Assembly (NCBI RefSeq): GCF_028368995.1
Contig: NZ_JAQNDL010000002.1
Coordinates: 256,001 to 320,000 of the forward strand
Reading direction: 5' to 3'
Source: Nannocystis bainbridge
GTDB taxonomy: Bacteria > Myxococcota_A > Polyangia > Nannocystales > Nannocystaceae
DNA: 64,000 nucleotides
Shown here: one piece after another, positions 959-45,055 of the stretch
Numbering within the stretch: the stretch's first letter is position 1
How the letters are laid out: each line of letters opens with the position of its first letter
Notes under the pieces: generated by a model
What the model saw: only the letters and a program-made list of their open reading frames with translations
Databases searched by the model: none
What the model was told of the DNA's origin: nothing
Program-made: the position numbers and the translations under genes

Positions 959-978
959 GGTACCGCCGGGAGGGCGGC

Positions 979-21683: not shown

Positions 21684-22493
21684 TCAAGGACAGGCCGCTT
21701 CGTCGGTCTCGTCGACGCAGTCGACGTGGCCGTCGCAGACCCAGTTCGCCGGGACCTCGAGGCCGTCGTCGCACGCGAAGTAGCAGAGGGCCGTGGCCTC
21801 GTCGGACGCGTCATCGCAGTCGGGCGTGCCGTCGCAGCGGTCGAACGCGGGGATCTGCTGGCCGTCTTCGCACACGAACACGCAGGTCGCCTCGGCCTCG
21901 TCGGACATGTCCTTGCAGTCAGGTTGGCCGTCGCACACGTACTGGGCCGAGATCGTGCCGCCGCCGCTGCACGCGAACGCGGGGCCGCCGTTGCACTGGA
22001 TCGTGAGGGCGCCGACGCTGGCCTTGGCGGCCTTGTCACAGGCGGCGACGGCGTCGGCGTACTGGCCGTTGCAGGTGAAGTAGGCGTCCTCCTGGGCGCA
22101 GCCGAGCGGCTCGAGGCAGCCCTGATAGCCGACGGCTGCGTCGGCGAGGCAGGCGACGTAGGGCGCGTGCAGTGGGTCGGCCTCGAGGTCGCAGACGCAC
22201 GAGGTGTTGGCGGTGGCGACGAGGTCGGCGACGCAGCCGCCGACGTCAGGGTAGGCGCCCGCCTCGACCTCGCACGGACAGCGCAGGTCGGCGGCCGCCT
22301 GGGTGGCGATGGCCTGCTTCTCGCACGCGGGGATCGTCACCGGGGTGGTGGTGGCGGCGGTGGTGGTCGCGTCGGACGCGTCGGTGTCGGTGGTGGTCGC
22401 TTCGGTGGCCGAGGCCGTGGCGCCCGTGCTCGCCTGTTCGTTGGGACAGGCGCACAGCAGGAGCGCGCCCGCGAGCCGCGTTCGAGGCTTCAT
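21684..22493 (-). CDS. Lipoprotein with three LDL-receptor class A-like repeats
   Basis: Lipobox LCAC; three F.C..G..I....CDG..DC.D.SDE units. Confidence 0.85.
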   Translation of the reverse strand: MKPRTRLAGALLLCACPNEQASTGATASATEATTTDTDASDATTTAATTTPVTIPACEKQAIATQAAADLRCPCEVEAGAYPDVGGCVADLVATANTSCVCDLEADPLHAPYVACLADAAVGYQGCLEPLGCAQEDAYFTCNGQYADAVAACDKAAKASVGALTIQCNGGPAFACSGGGTISAQYVCDGQPDCKDMSDEAEATCVFVCEDGQQIPAFDRCDGTPDCDDASDEATALCYFACDDGLEVPANWVCDGHVDCVDETDEAACP

Positions 22494-22786
22494 GCCTCGA
22501 AAGTTAGCGCCGGCGCGTGGGGGTCGAGCCGGACCTGACGGCGGACGTGGCGGGCGACACCGGCGCGCTGTGCTGCCGGTCGTGGCGGGCGAAGCGTCGG
22601 CCGCGAGTGGTCGCCGGATCGGTCTCCGCCGGTCGCGCCGGGCGCGAGGGCGCGCTTATGTCCCGAGAGACAGGTTCCGGTGCTGCGCGCGAGGTCAAGC
22701 GCCTGTCCCGATGGACATGTGACGGAGCGCGCGCCGGCGCTGTGAGCGAGGTTGAGCGCCTGTCCCGAGGGACAGGTGAGGTGGGC

Positions 22787-23518
22787 TCAGGGCGTGGCCG
22801 CGGTCGTGCAGGTCAGGGTGCGGTCGCGCAGGTCGACGGTGGAGACCACCGTGGCCTGGCCGCGGACCACGTCGACCACCACGCCGTCGTACTGGTTGGT
22901 GCACTGGGGCTGGCTGCGCTTGCTGATGACGCGGTAGCCGCCGTCGATGGTGCGCACGCTGTCGTCGCCGCACAGCGGCTGGACGCCGAGCAGGGCGGCG
23001 AGCAGGCGGGCCTCGCCGGGGGTGTCGATGGCGCCGAGCAGCGTGAGCAACTGCGACCGGGTGGCGACCGGGCGCACGTTGGCGCCGGACTGCAGCACGA
23101 GGTAGCGGGCCACCTGCGGGTCGGAGCCGGGGAACAGCGAGGTGCTGGCGACGGTGCTGGCGAGCAGGCGGGCGCAGGCGGGCACGTCGGCGACGGTCTG
23201 ACAGGCGAGGCCGACGCTGGCGAGGGTCTGCGACTGCTGGAAGCGGACGCCGGTGTCGGTCTGCTTCAGCACGGTCTCGCGCAGCAGGGCGTGCTCGAAG
23301 CGCACGTTGGTGTGGGTCGGCTCGAGGCCGGCGAGGAGCTGCTCGTGGCTGCAGATCGGGGCGCTGTAGGCGGGGCTGCCGGGCGGGAGCGCGGGATCGT
23401 CCGAGACGGGCGCGGGGTCGCTCGTGGCCGGCGCGCGGGGCGGAGAGCGGTCGCACGCGAACGCGGACCCGGCGGCGACGGCGACGGTGAGGACGGCGCG
23501 GAGACGAACGGCTGGCAC
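22787..23518 (-). CDS. Hypothetical lipoprotein
   Basis: Probable GTG start, AFAC lipobox, coding-like codon usage. Confidence 0.6.
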   Translation of the reverse strand: MPAVRLRAVLTVAVAAGSAFACDRSPPRAPATSDPAPVSDDPALPPGSPAYSAPICSHEQLLAGLEPTHTNVRFEHALLRETVLKQTDTGVRFQQSQTLASVGLACQTVADVPACARLLASTVASTSLFPGSDPQVARYLVLQSGANVRPVATRSQLLTLLGAIDTPGEARLLAALLGVQPLCGDDSVRTIDGGYRVISKRSQPQCTNQYDGVVVDVVRGQATVVSTVDLRDRTLTCTTAATP

Positions 23519-23893
23519 GGGGCCGAGGATACTACGCGGGCCGAACAGTGCGGAAGAAGCGGCCCGATCGGGCTTCACCCGCACGGACCTCCGCCCGCAC
23601 GAGGTCGGGTCGACGCAGCGAAGATGGCCGCGGCACCGCTCAAAACGCCGCTCGGAGGCCGATCGCGCGGTTCGCCTCGCGCGGCCGTCCGCGGCGTCGA
23701 TGGGCTCGCGGACGACCATGCGGAGGTCAGGCCGGGAGGCGTGCCTGGCGAAAAGACCACGTCAGGCCGGCGATCGAGGCGGGGCGCGAGGGCTGGCCCT
23801 TGGGTCAGGGTCGGTCGGCGTTACCGCGCCTGCGGGCAGGTCGAGTTGACGCGCTCGCGTGGGTCGCGCGCGCGGGCTCGTCGCTCGCGGCGC

Positions 23894-25351
23894 TCAGGGG
23901 CGCGGCGGGGCCGGCAAGATCCACGGGCGAGGGCCCAGGCCGTCGACCTCGCGCGCGAGGTCGACGTCGGGGTCGACGAGGCGCGCGGCGGGGCGGCCGT
24001 TGTAGGTGACGAACACGTCGGCGCGGACCTCGGCGCCGGGGTTCTCGGCCGCGATGTGGTGCGCGTACTCGAGGACCATGTCGGGCTGGAAGGCCATCTG
24101 CTTGGCCTGCTGGGCGGTCAGGGTCGGCTCCGGATCGACGAGGCGCTGGCGGCCGCTGACGGGGTCGCGCACGCGGTAGACGACGCTGCCGACCTTCTCG
24201 ACCAGCATGACCTGCCAGGCGAAGCGATAGCCCTCCTCGGTCCAGGCGGTGTCGCCGGGGTAGGCGAAGCGGCGCAGCGGCAGGGTGAGCTGCACGGCGA
24301 AGTGGAGCGCGAGCAGGCCGAGCAGCAGCGGCCGGGCCGGGAACGAGCTGGCGGATAGGACAGGTGCCATGGGGCATGTCCTCGGGGACAGGCGACACCA
24401 CAGCCGCCGCGGCCAGTCGGGCGGGAAGAACACCAGGGCGGCGGCGGCCATGAGCCACGGGAACATGCCGATCGCGGGGAACAGGGCGCCGGTGAGGCCG
24501 TGGAACACGAGCACGCCGGCGTAGGCGAACGGGCGCGTGCGCGGGTGCAGCAGCAGGAACGGGACCGAGAGGTCGAAGGCGGCGCCGCCCCAGCTCATGA
24601 GGTGGGCGGCCTCGGGCCGGCGCAAGAGCCCGCCGATCAGCGGGAAGTCGGCGCGCGCGGCCAGCCACAGCCGCAGCGGCTGGGCGTGCAGCAGCCAGTC
24701 GGGGCGCAGCTTGGCCAGCCCGGCGAAGAAGTAGACCAGCCCGACCTGCAGCCGCAGCGCCCACAACGCCCAGGCCGGGGCGACGGCGACGCGACGGCCG
24801 AGCGGGAGCACGATCATCAGCAGGGCGACGACGCTGACGAAGTAGTAGTGGTTGAGGTAGGTCGCCTTGTCGAGCAGTTCGACGTAGGTGAAGAGGACGA
24901 AGAACAGGGCGATCGCGGGCCGGTAGCACACGCCCGCGGCGACGAGCAGCGACAGCGCGCCGAGGGCGACGAACACGGCGATCATGCCGGCCTCGGGCAG
25001 CGGTGCGAGCCAGCCGAAGCCCCAGTAGTGGAAGTGGAAGGTCGGGTCGACGTACAGCTGGTGGATCCACCCGCGCGCGGCGAAGCGGACCGTGCCGGCG
25101 AACATCAGCAGGCCAAAGGCGATCCGGAACGCGTGGAGGCCGGCGGCGTCGACCGGGGCGAGCAGGGCGCGCAGGAGGCGGCTGAGGGCGCCATGGCCAT
25201 CATCTGCCCGAATCGACATGTCTATTGGGACACGTTCTACCGGCGCGTCCTGCTCGTCATCTGTCCGAAGCGACATGTCGCAGGGGACATGTTCATCGTG
25301 CGGCCGGCCGACCGCGGGCGGGCTGCGGTCCGGGGGGGCGCGGTCGGGCAT
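23894..25351 (-). CDS. HTTM domain / vitamin K-dependent gamma-carboxylase-like membrane protein
   Basis: FRIAFGLLM, FHFHYWGF, LDKATYLNHYY, VYFFAGLAKLRPDWL, IGMFP, WTEEGYRFAWQVMLVEK. Confidence 0.88.
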   Translation of the reverse strand: MPDRAPPDRSPPAVGRPHDEHVPCDMSLRTDDEQDAPVERVPIDMSIRADDGHGALSRLLRALLAPVDAAGLHAFRIAFGLLMFAGTVRFAARGWIHQLYVDPTFHFHYWGFGWLAPLPEAGMIAVFVALGALSLLVAAGVCYRPAIALFFVLFTYVELLDKATYLNHYYFVSVVALLMIVLPLGRRVAVAPAWALWALRLQVGLVYFFAGLAKLRPDWLLHAQPLRLWLAARADFPLIGGLLRRPEAAHLMSWGGAAFDLSVPFLLLHPRTRPFAYAGVLVFHGLTGALFPAIGMFPWLMAAAALVFFPPDWPRRLWCRLSPRTCPMAPVLSASSFPARPLLLGLLALHFAVQLTLPLRRFAYPGDTAWTEEGYRFAWQVMLVEKVGSVVYRVRDPVSGRQRLVDPEPTLTAQQAKQMAFQPDMVLEYAHHIAAENPGAEVRADVFVTYNGRPAARLVDPDVDLAREVDGLGPRPWILPAPPRP

Positions 25352-25361
25352 TTCGCTCGGG

Positions 25362-26474
25362 TCAGTCGCCGTCGTTGTCGCTGAGGGCGAGGGTGACGCC
25401 GAGGGTGCTGGCGACGTCGAGCTTGAGCAGGCGACGGAACGTGTCGAGCTCGTCGCGGGCCAGCTGGACGGCGGTGCGGTCGGCGACGAGCGCCTCCGTC
25501 AGGGGCTCGGGGACGGCGACGAGGACCTCGACGGTGCGGGCGTACTGGGCCCGCACGCGCTCGTCGAGGGCCGGATCGAGGGCGGCGACGAGGACCGAGA
25601 TGCCGGCCGCGGGCGCGTCCAGATCGGCGCCGTGGTAGACGGCCCACACGCCGGCGAGGTTGGCCTGCAGGTCGGCGCGGGTGCGGCCGGAGAAGCGCGA
25701 CTCCATCAGGCTCGGGTCCTCGGCGGCGCCGGAGAGGTTGCCGAGCGGGTTGTCGAGCTTGCCCTTGACCATGGTGAGGCAGGCGTCGATCGACTTGTTG
25801 ATGACCTCGTCGACGCCGGCCTTGAGCGAGGGGTAGGCGGCGCTGCCGGTGCCGGCGGTGGCGAGGGCATCGGCGTACTCGCTGGCCCAGGCGGTGGCGA
25901 GGGCGTCGGTGCGGGCCTCGATGTCGACGGCGAGGGCCCGGGCGTAGCCGCAGCGGCGCGCGCCGTCCTCGCTCTGGAAGGCGGTCAGGGCGGCGCCCGG
26001 GTCCTCGCCCCACAGCAGGTACTCGAGCGCGGGCATGCCCTTGGCGCTGACGCCGAGGCCGCCGAGGTAGCCGGCGTCGGCGGCCGCGGGGGCGCCGGCG
26101 ACCGCGGTCTCGACGGTGTCGACGCGCACGGGCCAGAAGTCGAGGGCGTTGAGCTCGGGCGGCAGCGGGCCGAAGCCGAACGGGAGCACGCGCGACCAGG
26201 CGTCGCGCTCCTCCGACCAGGCGGCCTGGGCGGCCGCGAGGGTGGTGGCGTCGGGGCCGGCGCACAGCGGCTCAAGGGCGGCGACCAGCGCCCCGGCCCG
26301 CTCGTGCAGGGTCGCGAAGGCGGGGGCCGCGACGTCGTGGCCGATGTGGGCCAGCACGGCCGGGCGAGCGTCGTCGCCGCTGCCGCCGCCGCAGGCGAGG
26401 CCGGCGAGCATGCCGGCACCTGCTCCGAAGAGCATGGCCGAGAGGACAGGGCGAGAGAGACCGGCGCGGATCAT
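25362..26474 (-). CDS. Imelysin (peptidase M75-like) family lipoprotein
   Basis: LAC lipobox; AAQAAW..FGP..LDFWP, KGMPALEYLLW, C-terminal DNDGD. Confidence 0.88.
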   Translation of the reverse strand: MIRAGLSRPVLSAMLFGAGAGMLAGLACGGGSGDDARPAVLAHIGHDVAAPAFATLHERAGALVAALEPLCAGPDATTLAAAQAAWSEERDAWSRVLPFGFGPLPPELNALDFWPVRVDTVETAVAGAPAAADAGYLGGLGVSAKGMPALEYLLWGEDPGAALTAFQSEDGARRCGYARALAVDIEARTDALATAWASEYADALATAGTGSAAYPSLKAGVDEVINKSIDACLTMVKGKLDNPLGNLSGAAEDPSLMESRFSGRTRADLQANLAGVWAVYHGADLDAPAAGISVLVAALDPALDERVRAQYARTVEVLVAVPEPLTEALVADRTAVQLARDELDTFRRLLKLDVASTLGVTLALSDNDGD

Positions 26475-26599
26475 CGGGACCTCGAGGGACGGGGGAGCGT
26501 GCCGGCACCTGCCCCGAAGAGCATGGCCGAGAGGACAGGGCGAGAGCGGCCAGACGGCGAGCGCGCCGGCGGGGCGCCGACGACAGCGCGGGTGCTTTG

Positions 26600-26665
26600 A
26601 GGCATGTCCTCGCGGACATGTCCTTTCGCGCCGGGCCTCGGGGACATGTGCGAAGGGGCAGGCGG
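26600..26665. repeat. 14-bp phased TGTCC-N4-GGACA array (5 cores)
   Basis: Cores at 26603, 26617, 26631, 26645, 26659, inside the operon spacer. Confidence 0.75.
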
Positions 26666-26679
26666 GGCGCCCGCGGCGG

Positions 26680-28056
26680 TCACAGCGACTCCAGGAAGGC
26701 GATCAGGTCGGCGCGCTCGTCGGCGGAGAAGCTCCGCACGGCCTCGCGCGCGGGCTCGGCCTCGCCGCCGTGCCACAGCACCGCCTCCATCAGCGAGCGG
26801 GCGCGGCCGTCGTGGAGGAAGCTGGTGTGGCGGTTGACCGTCTCGACCAGGCCGATGCCCCACAGCGGCGGGGTCCGCCACTCGTTGCCGTCGGCCAGGT
26901 AGTCGCGGCGGCCGTCGCCGAGCCCGTCGCCCATGTCGTGCAGCAGGAGGTCGGTGTACGGCCAGATCGTCTGGCCCCGGACCTCGTCGATGGCGGCGTC
27001 GGCGGCGGTGATGTGGCGCGGGACGTGGCAGTCGACGCAGCCGGCCGCCGCGAACAGCCCCTTGCCGCGCAGGACCTCGGGCGCGTCGGCGCCGCGGCGA
27101 GCGGGGACGGCGAGGGTCGCGGTGTAGAAGACGACGTCTTCGAGCAGGTCGGCCGTGACCTCGGGCTGGCCGCCGTGCGGGGCCGCGGCGCACTCGGGCT
27201 GGCCTTCGGGACAGTTCTCGAGCGGGAACATCTCGGTCGTCAGGCCCATGTCGCCGAGGAAGGCGCCGGCCGTCTGCTGGGCGATGGTCGACTGGTTGGC
27301 CTTCCAGCCGAACCGGCCGAGCACGGCGGCGTCGGCGGCCAGGTCCCACACGTAGTTGGCGCGGCCGGAGATGCCGTCGCCGTCGGCGTCGCGTGGGTCC
27401 TCGCGGGCGACGATGTCGGCCTCGGGGATGGCCTCGAGCAGGCCCATGCCGATCATCACCGGGGCGACGCGCGGCGAGATGAAAAGGTCGGCCGGCAGCG
27501 GGCCGTAGGCCGGGTCCTCGAGGGTGTAGGTCGGGACGCGCAGGCTGTACGCCTCGCCGTCGGCGAAGGCGCCCGGGCGCTCGACCCACGTGACCTTCGG
27601 GACAGCTTCGGGCGCGACCCCGTCGATGGCGTTCGGCTGCAGCTGGTCGCCGTAGCCGGGCACATCGCGCGGGCCGCCGTGCAGGCCCTCGCCGGGGATC
27701 GAGAGGCGCAGCAGCATGCTGGTGAACGGCTCGTCGGCCTCGGGCGGGCGGCCGCGGCCGTCCTTGAAGTGGCAGGCCGAGCACGAGCGGGCGTTGAAGG
27801 TCGGGCCGAGGCCGTCGCGCCCGGTGGTCGAGGCCGGGGCGATGACCCAGTTCTTGTTGAAGAACGAGTTGCCGACCACGAACCGCTGGCGCCGCTCGAA
27901 GGTCATGTTGCGGGCGCTGTACGAGAACGCGTTGGGGCTCTCGTCGCGGATGGTGGTGTCGCCGCCGGCCAGCTCCTCGCCCGGCTCGAGCGCCGGGGCG
28001 AGGTCTTCACAGGATGCCCCGAAGAACAGGGCCAAAAAGACAGGCAGGCGGCGCAC
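26680..28056 (-). CDS. Di-haem oxidoreductase family (DHOR/DUF1111-type) lipoprotein
   Basis: DGLGPTFNARSCSACH, GCVDCH, PYTDLLLHDMG, WRTPPLWGIG, FLHDGRAR; probable GTG start. Confidence 0.9.
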   Translation of the reverse strand: MRRLPVFLALFFGASCEDLAPALEPGEELAGGDTTIRDESPNAFSYSARNMTFERRQRFVVGNSFFNKNWVIAPASTTGRDGLGPTFNARSCSACHFKDGRGRPPEADEPFTSMLLRLSIPGEGLHGGPRDVPGYGDQLQPNAIDGVAPEAVPKVTWVERPGAFADGEAYSLRVPTYTLEDPAYGPLPADLFISPRVAPVMIGMGLLEAIPEADIVAREDPRDADGDGISGRANYVWDLAADAAVLGRFGWKANQSTIAQQTAGAFLGDMGLTTEMFPLENCPEGQPECAAAPHGGQPEVTADLLEDVVFYTATLAVPARRGADAPEVLRGKGLFAAAGCVDCHVPRHITAADAAIDEVRGQTIWPYTDLLLHDMGDGLGDGRRDYLADGNEWRTPPLWGIGLVETVNRHTSFLHDGRARSLMEAVLWHGGEAEPAREAVRSFSADERADLIAFLESL

Positions 28057-28064
28057 GACCCAGT

Positions 28065-29228
28065 CTACTCCAAGTTGAGCTCGATCTCGAGCACACCCGC
28101 GACCTGGACCAGCGCCTCGGTCGCCTCCTTGAGGCTGTCGATCGCGGCCTTGACCGCGGCGCGCTCCGGGCTGCCGTCGGCGGCCTGGATGGCGTTGTCG
28201 AACGGGGCCGGGATGGCCTTGACGGCGGCGACCGCGGCCTGGAGCTTGGCGGTGGCGTTGGCGTCGACGTCGGCGTCGAGGCGGGCGACCAGGCTCGAGA
28301 GACCGGCGCCCGCCTGCCCGTCGATGCGGCCGTGGTACACGTCGTCGATGCCCTGGATGTTGGCCAGGATGTCCTTGTGGGTGTTGTCGCTGAAGCAGGA
28401 GTGCTCGTCCTCCTGCTCGCGGGTGTCGTAGGCGACGGTCATGCGCTCGCCGGCGAGCTCGGCGCCGCTGAGGCTGGCCATGCCGAGCAGGACCTTGCCG
28501 ATCGCTTCCTTGGGGTCCTGGGCGACGAACTCGGCGCGGTAGTTGGCCTGTCCTTCGGACCAGGCGTCGGCGACGCGCGCCAGATCGTCGAGCAGCAGCT
28601 CGCTCGTCAAGGTGAGGTAGTCGCGGCGGCGCTCCTGGTTGGCGGCGGTGCCCTCGGGCGCGTCGACGAAGTCGGTCCACGGGCGCGCGCCCGGGCCGTC
28701 GGCGCTCAGGTCCTGGCCCCACAGCAGGAACTCGATCGCGTGCCAGCCGGTCGAGATGCTGTCCTCGCCCTCGGCGCCGTTGCGCTCGATCAGCACGTCG
28801 CGGGTGATGTCGGGGTAGCCGGCGAGGTCGTTGATGATGCCGGCGTCGGCCTGGCCCTCGACGTAGTCGATGTACGCCTCGTCCATCGGCCAGGCGTTGA
28901 TGCGGCCCTCGAGCTCGTCCGGGGCGGCGTCGATCGGGCCGTTGTAGAAGCGGAACACCTCGGTGAGGCCGTACTGGTCGCGGGCGCCGAGCCAGGCGGT
29001 CTTGGTGGCCGCGAGCGTCTCGGCCGAGGGATCGCCGACGAACGCCTGCAGGGCGCTGTCCATCTGCTCGGCGCCGCGGCTCGACTTCTCGTAGGCGGCG
29101 GAGACCAGCTCGGCGTAGCGATCGACCACGTTCTGCGCTTCCTCGCGGAAGGACGCGTCGTCCCAGCCGGTGTCGGCGGTGGTGGTGCAGGCGGGGAGGA
29201 GACAGAGGGCGAGGAGCGAGCGGCGCAT
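28065..29228 (-). CDS. Iron-regulated imelysin-family lipoprotein (IrpA-like)
   Basis: LPAC lipobox; TEVFRF, INAWPMDEAYIDYV, TGWHAIEFLLWGQD, ELAGERM, EDEHSCFSDNT. Confidence 0.9.
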   Translation of the reverse strand: MRRSLLALCLLPACTTTADTGWDDASFREEAQNVVDRYAELVSAAYEKSSRGAEQMDSALQAFVGDPSAETLAATKTAWLGARDQYGLTEVFRFYNGPIDAAPDELEGRINAWPMDEAYIDYVEGQADAGIINDLAGYPDITRDVLIERNGAEGEDSISTGWHAIEFLLWGQDLSADGPGARPWTDFVDAPEGTAANQERRRDYLTLTSELLLDDLARVADAWSEGQANYRAEFVAQDPKEAIGKVLLGMASLSGAELAGERMTVAYDTREQEDEHSCFSDNTHKDILANIQGIDDVYHGRIDGQAGAGLSSLVARLDADVDANATAKLQAAVAAVKAIPAPFDNAIQAADGSPERAAVKAAIDSLKEATEALVQVAGVLEIELNLE

Positions 29229-29291
29229 GCGGGGGCTTCCAGTCCGTGAGGCGCGCCAGCGCGAGGGGCGATGGCGATCGAAATTTGGGAT

Positions 29292-29310
29292 ACTGAAAGT
29301 GGTTTTCAAT
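29292..29310. promoter_or_regulatory. Putative Fur box
   Basis: ACTGAAAGTGGTTTTCAAT, a 7-1-7-type inverted repeat about 65 bp upstream of the imelysin operon. Confidence 0.7.
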
Positions 29311-29366
29311 GTCAACGCCCCGGGAGTGCCTGGACGCACGCCAGGGCCGCGGCTATGGTGCCGGCC

Positions 29367-30092: not shown

Positions 30093-31177
30093 GGGTCCTG
30101 GTCGTCACGACGACCTTCCCGCAATGGGCCGGCGATCCGCGCGGCCGCTTCATCCTGCGTCACTGGGAGGCGCGCGCGGCGGCCGGCGACACGGTCAGAT
30201 TTCTGGTGCCGCGGACGGCGTGGGTCCGCGGCGCGCTGCCGTCGCCGTGCGAGGTGGTCCGCTTCGCCTACGCGCCGACCGGCATGTCGTCGCTGACCGG
30301 CCAGTTCGGCATCCTCGAGAACATCCGCGATCGGCCGTGGCGGGCGCTGCTGGTGCTGCCGTTCGTGGCCGCGCTGCAGCGGGCGCTGCAGCGCGAGATC
30401 CGGGCGTTTCGCCCCGACAAGGTCGCGGCCCACATGCTGCTGCCGTGCGGCTGGCTGGCGGCCGAGGCGGCCCGCGCGGCCCGGGTGCCGTGCGAGCTGT
30501 ACGGCCACGGCACCGATGTCGACCTGCTGCTGCGCCTGCCCGGACCGCTGCGCGAGGCGGCCCTGACGGCGCTGGGGCAGGCCGAGAGCGTCGCCCTGCC
30601 GTCGGCCGAGAAGCTGGCCCGGGTGGCCGCGGCCTGGCCGGGTCCGCCGCCGCTGCGCATCGAGACGATGGTCGGCAGCGTGGCCGATGGGGCAGGTTCC
30701 AACGCACATGTCTATCAGGACATGTCCGAACGCGCAGGCGACGAGGTGCTGTTCCTCGGGCGCCTGATCAAGCAGAAGGGCGTCGACGATCTGCTGCGGG
30801 CGGCGGCGCTGATGCCCCGGCGGCCGCGCCTGGCGATCGCCGGCGACGGGCCGGAGCGGCGCCGACTGCAAGGCATGGCGGAAGGGCTGCGGCTCGACGC
30901 GCGCTTCCACGGGTTCGTCGAGGGCGCGGCCAAGGAGGCGCTGTACCGGCGAGCTGCGCTGCTGTGCGTGCCGTCGCGCGAGATCGGCGGGCTGTCCGAG
31001 GGGGCGCCGCTGGTGATCGCCGAGGCCAAGCGCTACGGGCTGCCGGTGGTGGCGACGGCCGTGGGCGGGATCCCCGAGCTGATGCGCGACCTGTATCCCG
31101 AGACCGCCCTGGTCCGGCCCGGAGCGCCGCAGGCGTTGGCGCAAGCGCTGGCGCAGGCGCTCGCACAGGGGGCCTGA
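30089..31177 (+). CDS. Glycosyltransferase family 4
   Basis: GTGA overlap with the upstream gene; HGTDV, LFLGRLIKQKG, EGAPLVIAEA..GLPVVATAVGGIPE. Confidence 0.88.
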   Translation: MRVLVVTTTFPQWAGDPRGRFILRHWEARAAAGDTVRFLVPRTAWVRGALPSPCEVVRFAYAPTGMSSLTGQFGILENIRDRPWRALLVLPFVAALQRALQREIRAFRPDKVAAHMLLPCGWLAAEAARAARVPCELYGHGTDVDLLLRLPGPLREAALTALGQAESVALPSAEKLARVAAAWPGPPPLRIETMVGSVADGAGSNAHVYQDMSERAGDEVLFLGRLIKQKGVDDLLRAAALMPRRPRLAIAGDGPERRRLQGMAEGLRLDARFHGFVEGAAKEALYRRAALLCVPSREIGGLSEGAPLVIAEAKRYGLPVVATAVGGIPELMRDLYPETALVRPGAPQALAQALAQALAQGA

Positions 31178-31211
31178 GCGGCGTGGTGACGCGACGCGTG
31201 AGGGCGGCGCG

Positions 31212-32333
31212 GTGAAGTGGTTGCGGCGTGCGCTGGTGGGGTTGATCGCGCTGCTGCTGGTGACGCTGGCGATCGGCTGGGTGTACCTCGGCGACCTCGT
31301 GCTGGCGGTGGCGGCTCCGAGGGTCCCGTTCGACCGCGCGAACGTGCCGCCGGCGCCCGACTACGACCAGCCCGCGGCGTGGAGCGCCCGGCCCGAGACG
31401 GTCGACGCGGCCGACGCGGAGGTCGAGGGCGTGGCGATCGCGGCGGACCCGGAGGTCGACGTGTTCTACCTCCACCCGACGTCGTTCCTCGGCAATGCAT
31501 GGAACGCCGGCCTCGATGACGCGACCGTCAACGTGGCGACGGACCAGGGGGCGACGCGGATCCAGGCGAGCCTGTTTTCGGGCTGCTGCCGGGTGTTCGC
31601 GCCGCGCTACCGCCAGGCCAACATGACGGCCTTCACGACCGCGAGCGCCGACGGGGCGGCGGCGATCGGGCTGGCCGGCGACGACGCGATCGCGGCGTTC
31701 CGCCACTACCTCGAGCACGACAACCACGGGCGGCCGTTCATCCTGGCGGCGCACAGCCAGGGCTCGTTCGTCGGGCTCCGCCTGCTGCGCGAGGTGATCG
31801 CGCCCGGGCCGCTGCGGCAGCAGCTGGTGGCGGCGTACCTGCTCGGCGGACCTGTCACGGTCGAAGCGCTCGGTGACCTGCCGGTGTGCGAGTCGCCGGC
31901 GCAGACGGGCTGCGTGGTCGGCTTCAACGCGCGCAGCCTGGGCTACCGGCCAGGCATCGAGTTCGTGGAGAACCCGCCGCCGCCGGCAGGCGCGCCGCCG
32001 CGGACGCGGGTGTGCGTCAATCCGCTGACGTGGACCACGGACGCGGCGCAGGCGAGCGGCGGGCTCGGGGCTGTCTTTTGGGACAGCAGCGGAGCGAGGC
32101 CGACGCCGCGGCCCGGGTTCGCGTCGGCGCGCTGCGAGGCGGGCACGCTGTACGTGGAGCTGAGCGGGTCGGTGCCGCGCGACTTCATGAGCCGCCTGCT
32201 CGACCACGCGCTCGGGGCCGGCAACTATCATGCGATCGAGTACGGGCTGTTCTGGCTGGACCTGCGCGCGAACGCGAGGGCGCGCGCGGCGGCGTTCGTG
32301 GCCCAGGAAGCGGCTGTCCGAAGAGACATGTGA
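31212..32333 (+). CDS. DUF3089-like alpha/beta-hydrolase
   Basis: DVFYLHPT, VFAPRYRQ, GRPFILAAHSQG, CVNPL; N-terminal TM helix. Confidence 0.85.
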   Translation: MKWLRRALVGLIALLLVTLAIGWVYLGDLVLAVAAPRVPFDRANVPPAPDYDQPAAWSARPETVDAADAEVEGVAIAADPEVDVFYLHPTSFLGNAWNAGLDDATVNVATDQGATRIQASLFSGCCRVFAPRYRQANMTAFTTASADGAAAIGLAGDDAIAAFRHYLEHDNHGRPFILAAHSQGSFVGLRLLREVIAPGPLRQQLVAAYLLGGPVTVEALGDLPVCESPAQTGCVVGFNARSLGYRPGIEFVENPPPPAGAPPRTRVCVNPLTWTTDAAQASGGLGAVFWDSSGARPTPRPGFASARCEAGTLYVELSGSVPRDFMSRLLDHALGAGNYHAIEYGLFWLDLRANARARAAAFVAQEAAVRRDM

Positions 32334-32432
32334 TTCGATGCTGTTCGAAGGGACAGGCGAGCTCCGCGGGCGGATGACGCGCTGCCGGTCGCTCGGCGGT
32401 AACGGGATGGCCGAAGGGACAGGTTCGTCGCG

Positions 32433-32969
32433 TCACCCGGGCGACGCGGCTGCGGGCGGCTTGCGGGTGCGCAGGTCCCAGACCAGCAGGATCACGCCGA
32501 TCACCAGCGCGGCGTCGGCAATGTTAAAGCTGGGCCAGCTGCCGCCCCAGGGGTAGTTGAGCTTGATGAAGTCGACCACGCCGTGGTGGCCGAGCGCGTC
32601 GACGCGGAACAGGCGATCATAGACGTTGCCGAGCGCGCCGCCGGCGACGAGGCCGCCGGCGACGAAGCGCAGGCGCGTGCCGTGGGGGGCGCGGGTGGTG
32701 AGGACGATCCAGGCGATCATCGCCACGGTGACGGCGAGCAAGACGAAGGGGTAGTCGAGCCGACGCACGAGGCCGAAGGCGCTGCCCCGGTTGTAGGCGA
32801 AGGCGAGCTCGAGCCACGGATCGAGGACGACTACGACGCGGCCGGTCGGGCGCAAGCTGTCCCACACCCACTGCTTGGTGCCCAGGTCGAGGGCGAGCGC
32901 GCCGGCGCCGGAGACGGCGAGCAGGGCCCACAGGCGCGGGCTGGCGGGGACTTGCTGGTTTTTTAGCAT
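32433..32969 (-). CDS. lspA: Lipoprotein signal peptidase II
   Basis: D..TKQW, YNRGSAFG, GGALGNVYDR, VVDFI, WPSFNIAD. Confidence 0.9.
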   Translation of the reverse strand: MLKNQQVPASPRLWALLAVSGAGALALDLGTKQWVWDSLRPTGRVVVVLDPWLELAFAYNRGSAFGLVRRLDYPFVLLAVTVAMIAWIVLTTRAPHGTRLRFVAGGLVAGGALGNVYDRLFRVDALGHHGVVDFIKLNYPWGGSWPSFNIADAALVIGVILLVWDLRTRKPPAAASPG

Positions 32970-32987
32970 CGTGCTAGAAAAACAGCA
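32953..32987. promoter_or_regulatory. Putative BlaI-family operator
   Basis: TGCTGGTTTTTTAGCA-TCG-TGCTAGAAAAACAGCA: 16-bp arms matching at 14/16, each a TGCT-N8-AGCA box, between lspA and blaI. Confidence 0.7.
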
Positions 32988-32993
32988 CAAGGG

Positions 32994-33389
32994 ATGCCGC
33001 GACGCAAGCCCGACCTCGATCCGCTGAGTCGGCGTGAGCGACAGATCATGGACATCGTCTACCGGCGCGGGCAGGCGACCATCCGCGACGTGCTCGACGC
33101 GCTGCCCGACCCGCCGACGTATTCGGCAGTGCGCGCGCTGGTGAAGGTGCTCGAGGACAAGGGCCACCTGCGGCACACGCAGGACGGGCCGACGTACGTG
33201 TACGCGCCGACGCGCGCGCGCGCGCGGGTGGCCACGTCGGCGCTGGCGCACGTGGTCGACACGTTCTTCGGCGGGTCGGCGAGCGACGCGGTGGCGGCGT
33301 TGCTCGACCTCGACGGGCGCGAGCTGTCGCGGGCGGAGCTCGACGAGCTGGGGGCGATGATCGAGCAGGCGCGCAAGGAGGGCCGCTGA
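32994..33389 (+). CDS. BlaI/MecI/CopY family transcriptional repressor
   Basis: LSRRERQIMDIVY, PTYSAVRALVKVLEDKG, VVDTFFGGS. Confidence 0.92.
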   Translation: MPRRKPDLDPLSRRERQIMDIVYRRGQATIRDVLDALPDPPTYSAVRALVKVLEDKGHLRHTQDGPTYVYAPTRARARVATSALAHVVDTFFGGSASDAVAALLDLDGRELSRAELDELGAMIEQARKEGR

Positions 33390-33390
33390 G

Positions 33391-34302
33391 ATGATCGCGG
33401 CGGCGGCGGCTTGGCTGGGGGCGCTGCAGCTGGTGGGGGCGCTGGTGTTCGCCTCGGCTGGCCTTTTGGACATGTGCGCCCGCGGGCGCAGCGCGGCGGT
33501 GCGCCGGCAGATCTGGGCCCTGGCGATCGCGGTGGCGCTGGTGCTGCCGCTGCCGCGGCTGGCCTTGCCGACGTCGGAGCTGCGGTTGCCCGAGGTCGCG
33601 GCGACGGCGTGGCTGGTGGCGTGGGCGATCGGGGCGGGGCTGTTGCTGGCGCGGCTGGTGCGGGGTCAGAGGCTGGCGCGCAGGCGAGCGCGGCGGGCCA
33701 GGCCGATCGCCGACGGGCCGTGGCAGGCGACGGCGCGGGAGGTCGGCGGTCCGCGGGCCGAGCTGCGCGCGTGCGAGTCGGCGCGCACGCCGATGGTGGT
33801 CGGGCTGGTGCGACCGATCGTGCTGGTGCCGGTGGTGATGCTGGGCGCGCCGGCGGCCGAGCGACGGGCGCTGCTGGCCCACGAGCTGGCCCACGTGGCC
33901 CGCGCCGACGCCATGGTGGCGCTGGCGGGCGGGCTGGCGCGGGCGGTGTACTGGCCGAATCCGCTGGCCTGGTGGGCGCTGCGGCGGCTGCGAGCCCACG
34001 CCGAGGACGCGGCCGACGACGCCGCGCTGCACACGGGGATCGCGTGCTCGAGCTACGCGGCGCAGCTGGTGGCGGTGGCGCGGGCGCAGCTCGAGCGGGC
34101 CGGGCGGGTCGCCGCCGGCGGGCTGCGGGCGCGCGTGCGCGGGGTGCTCGACGCCAGGCGGATCCGCAGCGGCGCGCCCCGTCCGCTGCGCTGGGGCGTG
34201 CCGCGGTTCATCGCGGCGGCGCTGGTGCTGGCGACGATGGTGACGGCCTGCGAGGCGCGCTCGGCCGAGGATGACGGGGCGCGGCCGGGCGTGCGGCCCT
34301 GA
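33391..34302 (+). CDS. BlaR1/MecR1-type M56 metallopeptidase
   Basis: TPMVVGLVRP.VLVP, HELAHVARAD, YWPNPLAW, EDAADD; directly follows blaI. Confidence 0.88.
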   Translation: MIAAAAAWLGALQLVGALVFASAGLLDMCARGRSAAVRRQIWALAIAVALVLPLPRLALPTSELRLPEVAATAWLVAWAIGAGLLLARLVRGQRLARRRARRARPIADGPWQATAREVGGPRAELRACESARTPMVVGLVRPIVLVPVVMLGAPAAERRALLAHELAHVARADAMVALAGGLARAVYWPNPLAWWALRRLRAHAEDAADDAALHTGIACSSYAAQLVAVARAQLERAGRVAAGGLRARVRGVLDARRIRSGAPRPLRWGVPRFIAAALVLATMVTACEARSAEDDGARPGVRP

Positions 34303-35020
34303 GGTCGCGGCGTCAGTCGCAATATCCGGGGACCCGGGCCATGCGGCCGCCGTCGCCGACGATGACGCGGCGCTCGCCGTCGGCGAGCCTGCGCGCCCAC
34401 GGCGCGCTCCAGGCCTCGAGCTCGGGCTCGTCGAGCAGCACGAGGTCGTAGACGCGGCCGTCGGCGCCCAGCGCCGTGACCCGCGTCGGGCCGCGGCTTC
34501 GCGGGGCGAGCGCTGCCGCGCGGCATGGCTCTTCGGTATACGGTCGCTCGATGCCCGGTCACCGCCAGGAGGGGCGGATTCTTGCGCAATCTGGGGCGAC
34601 GATCGGCTTTTGACGATCGTTCGAGGGCGGTGGATGGCCTGAAGCGGCGCACTGGCGCGAGGTCATGCTGCATCGAGCGAGACTGGGCTGCCCGGACGCA
34701 TGGAATGATTCGCGCGCCTGGGGTGGCGATGCTGCGCGGATGAAATGTCATGACATGGCCTCGGGGCAGGCGGTGCGGATGAGGCGTTCCACCATTACCT
34801 CTGGCGCCCAAATTTTCGGACCGCTCGGGCGGATTGCTGCGAGCTGGCCGGAGGGACAGGCGGAGACTGCGCCGGGGCCGGGCGTTCGGATGGCGGGAGG
34901 TGCCGCGGGTCACGGCGTGCGGGCGCGAAGGGGCGCGAGAGCGGGAGCAGGGCCGGCGTTCGCAGCGCGGGCGCGGCCGTTCGGCTGCAGGGGCGGCGAG
35001 GCGGGCAATCTCTCGCGGCC

Positions 35021-40723: not shown

Positions 40724-41883
40724 GGGACATGTCCTCCGCGCCAGCGATCGAGCTGGACCACGGTGAACGGCTCGGTCTGGCCGCAGCCGCGGCCGACCAG
40801 GACCTGGCCGCGGGAGAGGTCGATGATCATGCGGCCGCAGGTCTTGGAGGCGGACGGATCGCCGCCGCCGTCGTCGATGTGCGAGCAGACCGAGCGGGGG
40901 AAGCCGTCGTGGCTCGACAGCATGGTCCACAGGGCGCGGGCGTCCTGCGGGCGCTGCTGGACGTAGAGGGTGGTGGCCAGCTCCATGCGGCGGAACGAGG
41001 TGCTGGCCTTCGGGACAGCTTCGTGCTGGCGCAGGATCGGGTCGAAGCAATGGTTGGTGTGGAGGTGGGCCGCGCGGGCGCCGACCTGGGTGACGACCTT
41101 GAGCTTGCCGGAGGTCTCGACGCCGAAGAACTCGCGGCCGTCGGCGATCATGTAGTGGTGACCCGAGGACAGGCGGGTGCGCAGCAGCAGGTCGCGGGCC
41201 TCGCGGGCGCTGGCGCAGGCCAGCATGGCGCGCACGAGCGCGGGCCAGACCACGCCGACCTGACCGTCGGTGCTGGACAGGTTGTTGATGGTGACGGCGA
41301 GGCCGCTGGCGCTGACGCCGGTCATGCCGAGGCAGCCGGTCAGGGTGAAGCAGACGACCTCGTCGTCGCCGCGCCTGGGCTTGATGCGGATGGCGCGCAC
41401 GTAGGGCTCGGCGGTGCCGTGCATGTCCCAGGTCTGGCCGAGCACCGGGGCGTCGTGGCCGGGCAAGTAGACGGCGGTGCAGCCGCCCGGATCGTCGTCG
41501 TCGTCGTTGGTGTTGAGGGCGTGGAAGGTGTCCGAAACGACAGGGTCTTCCGGACATGTCCCTTCGAGCACGCTCGGCGGGACGTCGCGCAGGTCGGTGT
41601 AGTGGTTGAGGATGACGACCGCCTCGGGGGTGACGGCGGCGCCGCGGGCGATGCCCCGCAGCTCGGCGGCCAGCGGCGCCGAGAAGTTGTCGAGCAGCGG
41701 GAGGTGGAGCCGGGCGACGTCGTCGAGCTGGGCGCGGCCGGAGAACGAGCCCTTCTTGAGCGCGAGCGCGGCGCGGATCTCGACGAGCTCGCGGATCTCG
41801 GCCCGCCACAGCTCGCCGTGGGCCTCGCCGCGGGCGGCCGGGTCGTCTTGATCGAACAGGAACGGTGCGAAGGAGTCGGTCAC
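40720..41883 (-). CDS. C45 family autoproteolytic acyltransferase/hydrolase (Ntn fold)
   Basis: RGEAHG, ELRGIARGA, GG/CT processing site, GQTWD, GLAVTINNL, HTNH; GTGA overlap. Confidence 0.85.
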   Translation of the reverse strand: MTDSFAPFLFDQDDPAARGEAHGELWRAEIRELVEIRAALALKKGSFSGRAQLDDVARLHLPLLDNFSAPLAAELRGIARGAAVTPEAVVILNHYTDLRDVPPSVLEGTCPEDPVVSDTFHALNTNDDDDDPGGCTAVYLPGHDAPVLGQTWDMHGTAEPYVRAIRIKPRRGDDEVVCFTLTGCLGMTGVSASGLAVTINNLSSTDGQVGVVWPALVRAMLACASAREARDLLLRTRLSSGHHYMIADGREFFGVETSGKLKVVTQVGARAAHLHTNHCFDPILRQHEAVPKASTSFRRMELATTLYVQQRPQDARALWTMLSSHDGFPRSVCSHIDDGGGDPSASKTCGRMIIDLSRGQVLVGRGCGQTEPFTVVQLDRWRGGHVP

Positions 41884-44800
41884 GCGGGGCTCCGGGCCTC
41901 GTCGATGGCGGCCAGCACGCGGCGGCGCAGGTCGCCGGTGATGGTGGCGGGCGAGATGGTGAGCGGCGGGGCGAACACGAGGGTGTCGGGCAGGCCGTTG
42001 CCGAGGTAGAGGCCGCGGTGCAGGCAGGCCTGGTCGACGGCCTCGGCGACGGCGACGCTGGGGAAGGTGATGGTGCGGTAGAGGCCGACGCCGCCGAGCC
42101 GCGCGCCGGGGCAGGCGGGCAGGACGTCGTGCTGCAGCAGCTCGTCGAGGGCGGCGATCGACTCGGCGAGGTCGAGCCGCCGGGCGGCCCGCAGGTGCTC
42201 GTGGGCGCGGATCGCCGACAGCTCGTCGCCGTCCCAGGTCGAGATCAGGACCAGCGGCTTCTTGATGAAGTAGCGGTCGCCGACGAAGATGTGGCCGATC
42301 TGGCCGCCGGGGTACCAGAGCACCATGTCGGGCACGACGTCGGTGGGCAGGGTGTCGACGCCCCAGGCGGCGCCGCCGGTGCGGTAGCAGCCGCTGGCGG
42401 CCTCGACGAGCACGAGCGGGATGTCGTGGGCGCGGCAGGCGGCCGCCAGCACGCGCGCGGGCTCGCCGGCGAGGACCCGGCCCGAGCGCTCGCCGACGAC
42501 CTCGACGAACAGGCCGAGGATCTTGTCGGCACCTTGCCTTTCGACCAGGTCCTTGAGGCCAGCTTCGAAGCCGGCGGGGTCGTCCTCGGGGTGAGGCAGG
42601 CGCGGGAACTCGAACAGGGCCAGGCCGTCGCCGAAGCCGGCCGGGTCGGACAGGCTGCGCGCGGCGGCGGTGACGTGGCCGAGGTAGCCGCCCTGCAGGC
42701 CGACCGCGAGCTGGCCCTGCGGGCGGCTGAGGCGGAGGCAGCGCAGCGCCTTGTCGACGGTCTCGTCGCGCGACGAGGTGAAGTACATGTGGCCGGTGCC
42801 GCGCGGGGCGAGCAGGCGCAGGTGCTCGCTGTAGTGGACGGTGTCGACGGTGGCGTAGTTGCTGAGGTTGATGCGGCTGGCGGTCGGGCCGACCAGCTCG
42901 TGGCCGGCCATGAACGCCGGCGTGGCCCCGAACGGCTGCTGCAGGCCGCTGGCGAGGTCGAGGATGCCCTCGTCGTTCGGCGCGCGCGGGACCGGCGGCG
43001 GGACCAGCGGGATCCGGTAGTAGTCGGCCAGCGCGTTGCCCTCGTACTGGTGCGTCAGGCGGACCACCGGGAAGGCGCCGTACGAGCGGTTGAGGCCGGC
43101 CATGGCGTCGGTGGTGCCGACGCGGTTGCGGCCCGAGACGTAGGAGAAGCCGTGGACCTTGGCCCACTGGACCTGGGCGCGCTTGAGCAGGCGACCGACG
43201 CCGCGGGCCCGCGCGGCCTCGGCGACGGTGACGTCGGCCGAGTAGAAGGTGTCGCCGAGGCCGAGGCGCTCGTCCTGGCTGGCGCCCGAGACGCCGCGGA
43301 AGCCCTCGAGCGGGCCGCCGAAGCAGAAGCCGAGGATCGAGCCGCTGGCGGTGTCGACGGCGCACAGGCCGAGGCCGGTGGCGGCGGCGCGGCGCAGGTA
43401 GGCCTCGCTGTCGCGGCGCGCGGGCTCGTAGCTGGTGTTCTCGATGACCATGATCTGCGGCCAGTCGCGCTCCTCGATCGGGCGCACGATCACGGCCGGG
43501 TCGCTGTCGGCGGTCTGACCCTCGGGGACCCAATCCTTGGCTGTCTTGTCGGACAGGCGCGCGAGCGACTCGTGGATCCGCTTGAACAGGTCGTCGACGA
43601 CGCGCTCGTCCCAGCCGGCGCTGAAGCGGAACCGGATCGTGCGCTCGCCGGCGGGGTAGGTCATGAGGCCCCGCTGGTAGCGCTGGTCGATGAAGGCGGT
43701 CTGAGCGGCGGTGTCGGGCAGGTCGAAGGCGAGGGCGGTGCCGGCGAGGCGGACGTCGCCGACGAGGCCGGGGAAGGCGGCGGCGAGCGCCTCGGCGCGC
43801 GGGCGCAGCAGGCTCTCGAGGTAGGTCTGGTCGCGCGAGGTCTCGAGCTGGATGAGGCCGCGCAGGGCCGAGGCGACGTGGACCTGGTTGCTCTCGGGGT
43901 CGGGCCAGCGCGACAGGACGACGCCGAGGCCGGCCTTCTTGGCGCAGGTCAGGATGTCGGGCGCGGTGGCCTCGTCGCCGCCGAGGCCGAGGCGGGTCCA
44001 CCAGAAGAACGGGCCGCCGGTGGCGAAGCCGGTCTGGACCTCGTCGACGACCAGCGGCAGCTTGCGCGCGCGGGCCAGCTTGCACAGGCCGAGCAAGAAC
44101 TCGCGGCGCAGGTAGACATCACCGCCCTCGGCCTGCATCGGCTCGACGACGATGGCGTAGATCTCGTGACCGCGAGCGTCGAGCAGGCGCTCGACCTCGT
44201 CGAGGTCGGCGTGGCTGAACACGGCCTCGTAGCCCTCGAACTCGAAGGGGGCGCGCTTGTCCGGGTTCCAGGTGGCGGCGAGGGTGGCGAGGGTGCGGCC
44301 GTGGAAGCCGTCGCGGAAGGCGAGCACGCGCCGGCGCGGGCCGTCGACCGGCGGCGGGGCGTGCAGGCGAGCGATGCGCAGCGCCTTCTCGTTGGCCTCG
44401 GCACCGCCGGCGCAGACGAAGCTGACGTGGTCGAGCGCGGGCGGGGCCAGCCGCTCGAGCGCCTCCTCGTAGGCGGCCAGCTCGGGCACGTGGTGCACCG
44501 TGGTGTCGGGGTTGCTCCACAGGCAGTGGTCGAAGCGGCCGGTGTAGAGCGCCTTGACGATGCCCGGGTGATAGAAGCCGTGCGTCAGGGTGGCGATCTG
44601 TGAGCAGGCGTCGAGCAAGGTGAGCGGCCGGGCGTCGACCGAGACCATGTAGGGGCCCGAGCTGCGGCGGGTGTCGACGACCATCGGCTTCTTCTCGCGG
44701 ACGGTGAAGCCGCCGCCGTAGAAGCGCTCGAGCAGGGCCGCCGACTCCGGCAGCTCGCCGCCGGGCGGGATCCGTACGCGCCTCGTCTCGCGCTCGAAGA

Positions 44801-44900
44801 TCGCCCGCGGGCGCGGCGCCTCGGACCGTTGGCTCGACTCGAGGGCGTCGAGCCGGGCGTTGAGATCGAGTTCGCGGCCTGAATCCGGTTCAATAGACAC
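41880..44900 (-). CDS. Fusion protein: class III aminotransferase + GNAT acetyltransferase + degenerate aminotransferase domain
   Basis: GAEANEKA, FHGRT, VEPMQAEGGD, DEVQTG, TCAKK; GNAT V.EAARARGVGRLL; C-terminal copy with SRDETVDKAL but no PLP lysine; start uncertain. Confidence 0.85.
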   Translation of the reverse strand: MSIEPDSGRELDLNARLDALESSQRSEAPRPRAIFERETRRVRIPPGGELPESAALLERFYGGGFTVREKKPMVVDTRRSSGPYMVSVDARPLTLLDACSQIATLTHGFYHPGIVKALYTGRFDHCLWSNPDTTVHHVPELAAYEEALERLAPPALDHVSFVCAGGAEANEKALRIARLHAPPPVDGPRRRVLAFRDGFHGRTLATLAATWNPDKRAPFEFEGYEAVFSHADLDEVERLLDARGHEIYAIVVEPMQAEGGDVYLRREFLLGLCKLARARKLPLVVDEVQTGFATGGPFFWWTRLGLGGDEATAPDILTCAKKAGLGVVLSRWPDPESNQVHVASALRGLIQLETSRDQTYLESLLRPRAEALAAAFPGLVGDVRLAGTALAFDLPDTAAQTAFIDQRYQRGLMTYPAGERTIRFRFSAGWDERVVDDLFKRIHESLARLSDKTAKDWVPEGQTADSDPAVIVRPIEERDWPQIMVIENTSYEPARRDSEAYLRRAAATGLGLCAVDTASGSILGFCFGGPLEGFRGVSGASQDERLGLGDTFYSADVTVAEAARARGVGRLLKRAQVQWAKVHGFSYVSGRNRVGTTDAMAGLNRSYGAFPVVRLTHQYEGNALADYYRIPLVPPPVPRAPNDEGILDLASGLQQPFGATPAFMAGHELVGPTASRINLSNYATVDTVHYSEHLRLLAPRGTGHMYFTSSRDETVDKALRCLRLSRPQGQLAVGLQGGYLGHVTAAARSLSDPAGFGDGLALFEFPRLPHPEDDPAGFEAGLKDLVERQGADKILGLFVEVVGERSGRVLAGEPARVLAAACRAHDIPLVLVEAASGCYRTGGAAWGVDTLPTDVVPDMVLWYPGGQIGHIFVGDRYFIKKPLVLISTWDGDELSAIRAHEHLRAARRLDLAESIAALDELLQHDVLPACPGARLGGVGLYRTITFPSVAVAEAVDQACLHRGLYLGNGLPDTLVFAPPLTISPATITGDLRRRVLAAIDEARSPA

Positions 44901-45055
44901 GGGTCGAAGTGTATCGCCGCGGCCTTGGGCTCGCTGTGCCGCCCGTGCGGCGGGCGGCGAGGCCGCCCTCACGCGTGGGCCGATTCACGCGCCTGGGCCC
45001 GTCGGCGGGGCCCGAGGTGGTGGACCGCACGTCGGCGCGGGGGTAGGCTCGCTCC

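Follow-up and report, generated by a model that had tools for sequence, protein, structure and literature searches.

How could a bacterium that carries a spare gene for an antibiotic target hold it in reserve and recognize when it is needed? This question is raised by a small locus in a 64-kb stretch of DNA from Nannocystis bainbridge (hereafter the window; positions 256001-320000 of contig C3 in an 11.05-Mb genome), in which lspA, the gene for signal peptidase II (LspA), diverges from a gene for a BlaI-type repressor that is followed by a gene for a membrane zinc protease of family M56. As an antibiotic target LspA has been validated, and both natural (globomycin and myxovirescin) and synthetic inhibitors of it exist. 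In this study, we analyzed these three genes (hereafter the triad), the palindrome between them, and their relatives in other genomes and in metagenomes. We tentatively propose that the triad is a BlaI-repressed spare lspA whose M56 protein would serve as a decoy LspA substrate, reporting a shortage of LspA and thereby relieving the repression.

Results

Putative operator at the start of lspA

The start codons of lspA and blaI are separated by 24 bp (32970-32993), as had been claimed in a first-pass annotation of this DNA made from the sequence alone; on the minus strand, the lspA ATG occupies 32967-32969 and the stop codon 32433-32435, and the blaI ATG lies at 32994. The M56 gene starts 1 nt past the blaI stop codon (Table 1). 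The same annotation had described a 35-bp dyad over the lspA start, and we located it at 32953-32987 with the sequence TGCTGGTTTTTTAGCATCGTGCTAGAAAAACAGCA, comprising two TGCT-N8-AGCA boxes. Box 1 (32953-32968) spans lspA codons 1-6, encoding MLKNQQ, so that the start codon of lspA is inside the dyad, and box 2 (32972-32987) stops 6 nt short of the blaI ATG. Inverted with respect to each other, the boxes match at 14 of 16 positions. Upstream of the first LspA membrane helix, the ATG within the dyad is the sole in-frame start codon and therefore the predicted true start of lspA.

The double box was found at a single site in the 11-Mb genome, and a reversed control pattern was found at none. When the half-site was searched with up to two mismatches, this locus and one further site were matched, against seven sites for the reversed control. 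A wider regulon in this genome was therefore rejected, there being no operator site beyond the control expectation, and the predicted regulon is the triad itself. Among 73 Nannocystaceae genomes, 18 contain the double box, versus one for the reversed control, and in all nine related loci compared the 35-mer has hardly changed, despite the divergence of their flanks.

Outside the family, the double box occurred in four of a sample of 401 genomes of the phylum (controls, 0): the Nannocystis genome itself, two genomes of other classes, and one unrelated match, in genome G326, which was rejected as an operator because neither BlaI, M56, nor LspA adjoins it. In the two genomes of other classes, the double box abuts a blaI homologue (52-54% identical) without lspA. 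A scan of metagenomes with a more specific form of the pattern matched at least 120 stretches, of which 80 loci were fetched and counted. The start of a blaI homologue lies at or near the end of the operator in 68 of these 80 loci, and lspA is present in only two, so that 66 of the 68 blaI-bearing loci lack it. In four loci (L173, L182, L185, and L194), blaI starts at the palindrome's own ATG and encodes N-termini such as MLLKNQH; relative to those genes, lspA of the triads uses the mirror-image ATG of the palindrome. The double operator, in the form TGCTA-N6-TAGCA, occurs widely across metagenomes of soil and sediment (GC contents of 0.45-0.76), and the blaI homologues beside it are paired with long M56 proteins that have large C-terminal parts. 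Because of its co-occurrence with blaI homologues, the double box is the predicted operator of a large clade of BlaI repressors, which as a rule control nothing but their own expression. On the same distribution, operator and BlaI clade long predate the association with lspA and extend far beyond it, and lspA is a predicted Nannocystaceae-specific addition, a gene placed directly onto the operator.

The BlaI-type protein matches the whole PF03965 profile (residues 11-125 on profile positions 1-115 of 115), and its palindromic operator lies at its own predicted promoter, as expected of the BlaI/MecI/CopY family. A sequence search of the PDB gave a weak match (E 0.006) to the N-terminal DNA-binding domain of Bacillus licheniformis BlaI alone (1P6R). 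Repressors of the BlaI family are inactivated in Staphylococcus aureus by a site-specific cut at Asn-Phe in the dimerisation helix. No Asn-Phe was found in the Nannocystis BlaI at the cleavage position, which is a rough estimate, as the PDB match covers only the N-terminal domain; a stretch reading TFFGGS...AVAALL is conserved among the BlaI sequences of relatives that were read. The position, uniqueness, and conservation of the 35-bp operator suggest that BlaI probably controls lspA through it.

Conservation of the triad

The first-pass annotation had made its reading depend on whether the triad is conserved, and we found that it is kept across three genera. The triad, or the remains of it left by contig ends, is present in 17 of the 73 Nannocystaceae genomes and in three of 17 genera. 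In 15 of the 18 double-box genomes lspA diverges from blaI (eight of Nannocystis, three of a second genus, and four of a third), and a search with the M56 protein added two more, G464 and G471; the G471 contig begins inside box 2. The order lspA-operator-blaI-M56 holds everywhere the contig continues, and the gap between lspA and blaI is 24 bp in all nine loci measured, although the identity of LspA falls to 46-59% in triad loci outside Nannocystis. The M56 protein of the window is 83% identical to a Nannocystis punicea protein and 79% to that of the Nannocystis exedens DSM 71 locus; a related-locus search of genome contigs gave this one orthologue (N. exedens) and 79 generic M56 loci among the matches listed.

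Several triads depart from this arrangement. In G464, box 2 has one mismatch (ending in TGCA), part of an additional half-box immediately precedes blaI, and the starts given by tblastn are about 116 bp apart and not 24, with the operator's own ATG at about 997 (L288:940-1120). The N. punicea genome contains the double box twice, the two copies being 1.9 kb apart. The second copy (L142:6045-6079; G001:C1:7045044-7045078) has the same ATGCTAAAAAACCAGCAAG start as lspA but no lspA behind it, and it precedes the DUF3089 gene neighboring lspA by about 140 bp. No second double box was found at the matching place in the window (31040-31300), and the N. punicea copy is either a duplication remnant or a species-specific extra target. 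In a Nannocystis genome that is 80% complete and in two contigs (G007:C2:3861154-3862031), the match to the triad M56 protein is split between two frames, with overlapping parts covering residues 3-123 and 118-294, owing to a frameshift or to an error of assembly; M56 of G447 was likewise matched in two pieces.

The lspA of the triad is an extra copy

The genome contains three genes for Peptidase_A8 proteins, namely, the triad lspA and a tandem pair at C3:752940-754160. The triad gene is thus an extra copy beside a tandem housekeeping pair, in line with the earlier suggestion that it is a backup. The same holds across the genus: the eight Nannocystis genomes with a triad have three lspA genes each, whereas three without it (metagenome-assembled genomes, 82-88% complete) have two. 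In the second genus, the counts are two to three with the triad versus one without it, and in the third, two to three versus two. The 15 triad LspAs share invariant N115 and D118 (GNxxDR) and N149 and D152 (FNxAD), of which we take D118 and D152 to be the catalytic pair. In a phylogenetic tree built from 41 LspAs, a branch with support of 94/95 separates the 15 triad copies from the tandem and housekeeping copies.

The short M56 protein and its C-terminal lipobox-like motif

The M56 protein has the four-helix membrane domain with an HExxH zinc site that characterizes proteases of the BlaR1/MecR1 type (topology read from the sequence). An AlphaFold2 model, built with an alignment of 73 relatives, had a mean predicted local distance difference test score (pLDDT) of 91.4 and a predicted template modelling score (pTM) of 0.86, and the structures that it matched best were those of S. 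aureus BlaR1 (8EXQ, 8EXR, and others), over the transmembrane and zinc-protease part (TM-scores 0.55-0.68). The positive-inside rule predicts an external N-terminus, a cytoplasmic protease domain containing HELAH (approximately residues 91-268), and a last helix that runs from inside to outside. Pfam gave no second domain on the 303 residues and no extracytoplasmic penicillin-binding sensor domain, as the first-pass annotation had also noted. The protein is therefore a member of the family and not a strict BlaR1, because it ends 16 residues past its last helix, where the sensor domain would stand.

A database search with the M56 protein found 82 relatives, of which the 73 with E ≤2e-50, all 289-350 residues long, were aligned. 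A286, C287, E288, and A289 are invariant in all 73, like H164, E165, and H168 of the zinc site, and T285 and R290 are conserved in at least 90%. Beyond A289-R290, the tail varies in sequence and length (12-60 residues, median 17). The C-terminus of the window protein reads ...RFIAAALVLATMVTACEARSAEDDGARPGVRP, which agrees with the earlier description of a hydrophobic helix ending in a lipobox-like VTAC, and the Cys, whose conservation that description had left to be checked, is among the invariant residues.

We compared these termini with a lipobox rule of the PROSITE PS51257 type: an uncharged stretch, then [LIVMFWSTAG](2)-[LIVMFYSTAGCQ]-[AGS]-C, after a positively charged stretch. The pattern fits all 73 relatives. 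The uncharged stretch is 14-22 residues long, and exactly 14 in 45 of them, including the window protein, in which it follows an Arg-rich stretch; net positive charge precedes it in 72 of the 73. In a rough census of predicted lipoproteins in the same genome, xTAC was the sixth commonest box (62 of 1089), and VTAC occurred eight times. The PROSITE-type rule expects the Cys within approximately the first 35 residues of the precursor, whereas here it is residue 287 of 303, after three membrane helices and the protease domain. Because the Cys is near the C-terminus, the M56 protein is not a canonical lipoprotein precursor.

The long M56 partners of the same operator provide a comparison. Operator partners without lspA were counted only if more than 150 residues follow HExxH (n = 33); all have long extracytoplasmic parts, and only one of the 33 has a lipobox after the last helix. 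In two metagenomic triads, which fall outside this length filter, the M56 protein ends in ...ATACEARS. The contrast between 73 of 73 and one of 33 indicates that the loss of the periplasmic domain together with the presence of a lipobox goes with lspA.

Two further M56 sequences carry a repressor domain in the same frame. Elsewhere in the same genome (L034:871-2475, contig C2), a BlaI-like stretch (31% identical to the window BlaI) and an M56 domain share one open frame of 535 codons, uninterrupted by a stop codon; LAAC closes the last helix, with ETEE after it. The frame may encode a fused repressor and protease, or two genes may overlap in it. One database relative of the M56 protein (P0070, 346 residues) also has both Pfam domains, BlaI-type and M56.

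Table 1 Features of the triad (positions in the window)
Feature	Position	Strand	Basis
lspA, accessory signal peptidase II, 178 residues	32433-32969	minus	PF01252 (Peptidase_A8), E 1.2e-30
Putative 35-bp operator, two TGCT-N8-AGCA boxes in inverted orientation	32953-32987		sequence and conservation
blaI-type winged-helix repressor, 131 residues	32994-33389	plus	PF03965 (Penicillinase_R), E 1.1e-25
Short M56 (BlaR1-type) membrane zinc protease, 303 residues	33391-34302	plus	PF05569 (Peptidase_M56), E 9.2e-22
HELAH zinc-binding motif of M56, H164-H168	33880-33894	plus	sequence; H164, E165, and H168 invariant (n = 73)
Last M56 membrane helix, signal-peptide-like, then V-T-A-C287	34195-34251	plus	Cys codon 34249-34251; lipobox pattern in 73/73
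Predicted periplasmic tail of M56, 16 residues	34252-34299	plus	E288-A289 invariant, R290 nearly so

Other genes in the window

The neighbors of the triad encode an imelysin, a methyltransferase, and a DUF3089 protein according to Pfam. At 21687-29339 lies a series of genes that is unusual in bacteria, encoding a protein with LDL-receptor class A repeats (21687-22655), an HTTM or vitamin-K-dependent gamma-carboxylase-like protein (23897-25498), and two imelysins (Peptidase_M75; 25365-26702 and 28068-29339). A TfuA-like protein is encoded by an open frame of 463 codons near the start of the window (895-2283), and a protein of 1034 residues carrying a class-III aminotransferase domain is encoded at 41883-44984.

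Discussion

Proposed mechanism

In the mechanism that we propose, BlaI dimers on the two TGCT-N8-AGCA boxes would block two divergent units at once, lspA at its start and, on the opposite strand, the blaI-M56 operon, and the M56 zinc protease, when activated, would inactivate BlaI by analogy with BlaR1. The last M56 helix, predicted to be inserted with its N-terminal end inside and its C-terminal end outside, resembles a lipoprotein signal peptide; C287 would receive its lipid from Lgt, and the A286-C287 bond would be cleaved by the housekeeping LspAs. If LspA were inhibited by myxovirescin- or globomycin-type compounds of competitors, or were overloaded, uncut lipidated M56 would accumulate and act as the active anti-repressor. 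The spare LspA, which would be the only target of the circuit besides the circuit itself, would then restore processing and reset the switch. An output that raises LspA makes sense because a modest increase in LspA protein suffices for resistance to an LspA inhibitor in Escherichia coli (PMC7482066).

The first-pass annotation had already suggested that the lipobox lets the sensor report LspA activity, and its reading is partly supported, all of its computable predictions having been borne out. The parts of this mechanism are not equally firm. That the lipobox is the sensing element is a tentative reading, a little less likely than not. If the lipobox does sense, the uncut form is probably the active one, a sign that was chosen solely because it gives negative feedback. 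The wider principle is put forward with a little more reserve: the M56 protein would be a decoy substrate fused to an anti-repressor, through which the cell could gauge the activity of an antibiotic target and adjust the dosage of that target. A full-text search, the results of which were judged mostly by title, found no paper linking lspA with BlaI/BlaR1 or with a switch of this kind, and the sensing principle would be new if confirmed.

Several observations weigh against the decoy mechanism. Literature searches, judged mostly by title, turned up no earlier case in which Lgt or LspA acts on an internal signal-anchor located at the C-terminus of a polytopic protein, and the AlphaFold2 model draws one continuous helix (residues 270-295) through the Cys. 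Glu at position +2 is uncommon among the predicted lipoproteins of the genome (36 of 1089), and none of them contains CEAR; recognition by Lgt and LspA leaves the invariant E288-A289-R290 unexplained, and this motif may serve another partner. A consensus scan of 32300-34500 returned no promoter-like site that would account for transcription of lspA from within the 24-bp gap; the one terminator-like hairpin that it returned, inside the operator region, is taken to be the palindrome itself. The triad LspAs are also not cleanly monophyletic: four long-branch LspAs from outside the triads (G019, G444, G024, and G436) fall within their group, although the support is weak (80/77), and two changes on the tree are required to account for the triad label. 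These four were rejected as triad members, having no adjoining BlaI or M56. The triad LspAs may have had a single origin.

The last point of this kind concerns 23 further M56 paralogues in the family, none of them beside lspA: in seven, a lipobox-like Cys follows the fourth transmembrane helix (TM4), so that this feature is not exclusive to the lspA-linked circuit. Four of these seven are M56-SLT fusions, in which the Cys is exactly at the junction with the SLT lytic-transglycosylase domain (L014, L015, L018, and L019 in G011, G021, G024, and G019, with the boxes VPAC, AFAC, AVGC, and VPAC, respectively). Lytic transglycosylases of the SLT kind are lipoproteins in E. coli. The fusions strengthen the idea that TM4, the last M56 helix, can also act as the signal peptide of a lipoprotein; they also hint that processing of internal signal-anchors by Lgt and LspA could be more general in Myxococcota.

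Alternative explanations

The alternative that survives best keeps the wiring and changes the signal. BlaI would still control lspA, and the M56 protein would respond through its helices or its CEAR tail to envelope or membrane-lipid stress or to a ligand, with C287 having no more than a lipid-anchoring, disulfide or redox, or structural role. All of the support for the wiring of BlaI to lspA is shared by this explanation, and it gains from the CEAR motif, the invariance of which exceeds what a lipobox needs, from the TM4 cysteines of M56 paralogues without a link to lspA, and from the existence of sensor-less M56 proteins elsewhere, such as the BlaR of Mycobacterium tuberculosis. However, it leaves unexplained why the loss of the domain and a perfect lipobox coincide with the recruitment of lspA (73 of 73 versus one of 33), and why the regulon comprises a single gene. 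We regard this explanation as rather unlikely.

A second alternative, which we consider improbable, is that the spare lspA provides self-protection against, or takes part in regulating, an LspA inhibitor produced by the Nannocystaceae that carry it, in parallel with lspA3/lspA4 of the myxovirescin cluster and globF of the globomycin cluster, with BlaI and M56 switching it on during production. The large genomes of Nannocystaceae, rich in secondary metabolism, would be compatible with such a role, but the surroundings of the triad are not those of a biosynthetic cluster: no polyketide synthase or nonribosomal peptide synthetase was found in the window, the four largest open frames scanned within approximately 100 kb comprise two TPR/Omp85 proteins and two without a Pfam match, the neighbors are the imelysin, the methyltransferase, and the DUF3089 protein, and the triad keeps its place across three genera with no shared cluster in view. 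Producers of LspA inhibitors do carry extra lspA genes (PMC8048626, PMC9943842).

That lspA merely landed by an autoregulated blaI-M56 pair, with the Cys as an inherited quirk, would suit an operator that mostly serves blaI alone (66 of the 68 fetched metagenomic blaI loci) but is very improbable given an lspA start codon within the operator, an arrangement kept across three genera at the low LspA identities noted above, and a Cys invariant in 73 of 73 relatives.

Comparison with known systems

The arrangement resembles the BlaI-BlaR1-BlaZ and MecI-MecR1-MecA systems of S. aureus and B. licheniformis, in which a PF03965 repressor and an M56 protease are encoded in one operon, the target gene is divergent, and paired palindromic operators occupy a short intergenic space; the fold matches of the M56 model to S. 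aureus BlaR1 add to this likeness. It differs from them in that the target is lspA and not a β-lactamase or a penicillin-binding protein, the M56 protein lacks the penicillin-binding domain of BlaR1 and MecR1 and ends in a lipobox with a 16-residue tail, the operator is TGCT-N8-AGCA and not of the TACA/TGTA type of BlaI and MecI, and the gene order is blaI and then M56. M. tuberculosis Rv1846c/Rv1845c is a sensor-less BlaI/BlaR pair, which shares with the triad a short M56 protein without a penicillin-binding domain and the order blaI then blaR, but has a different regulon; BlaR of the Rv1845c type is not known to have a lipobox.

With regard to the proposed signal, the closest parallel is the NlpE-Cpx system of E. 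coli, in which a sentinel substrate of the lipoprotein pathway signals failure of the pathway to transcription. NlpE, however, is a separate lipoprotein acting through a two-component kinase, whereas the putative sentinel in Nannocystis forms part of the anti-repressor protease, and the limiting enzyme is what the switch would produce. The spare copy has counterparts in lspA3 and lspA4 of Myxococcus xanthus (myxovirescin) and in globF (globomycin), paralogues beyond the housekeeping lspA that are considered protective against LspA inhibitors (PMC8048626, PMC9943842). Those genes are inside biosynthetic clusters, whereas the Nannocystis spare lspA is near none that we saw and has its own repressor and protease switch.

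Implications

If the proposed mechanism is true, the triad would be an inducible resistance module against inhibitors of signal peptidase II, and this conserved, on-demand LspA switch would constitute a natural resistance element in soil bacteria as well as a ready-made reporter of LspA inhibition. A BlaR-type protease would then sense the activity of an enzyme and not a ligand, which would be a new mode of input for sensors of this type, and, if the lipobox is the sensor, the lipoprotein machinery would act on an internal signal-anchor. Regardless of the role of the lipobox, the double box provides a predicted operator for a large, uncharacterized BlaI/M56 clade that is common in soil metagenomes.

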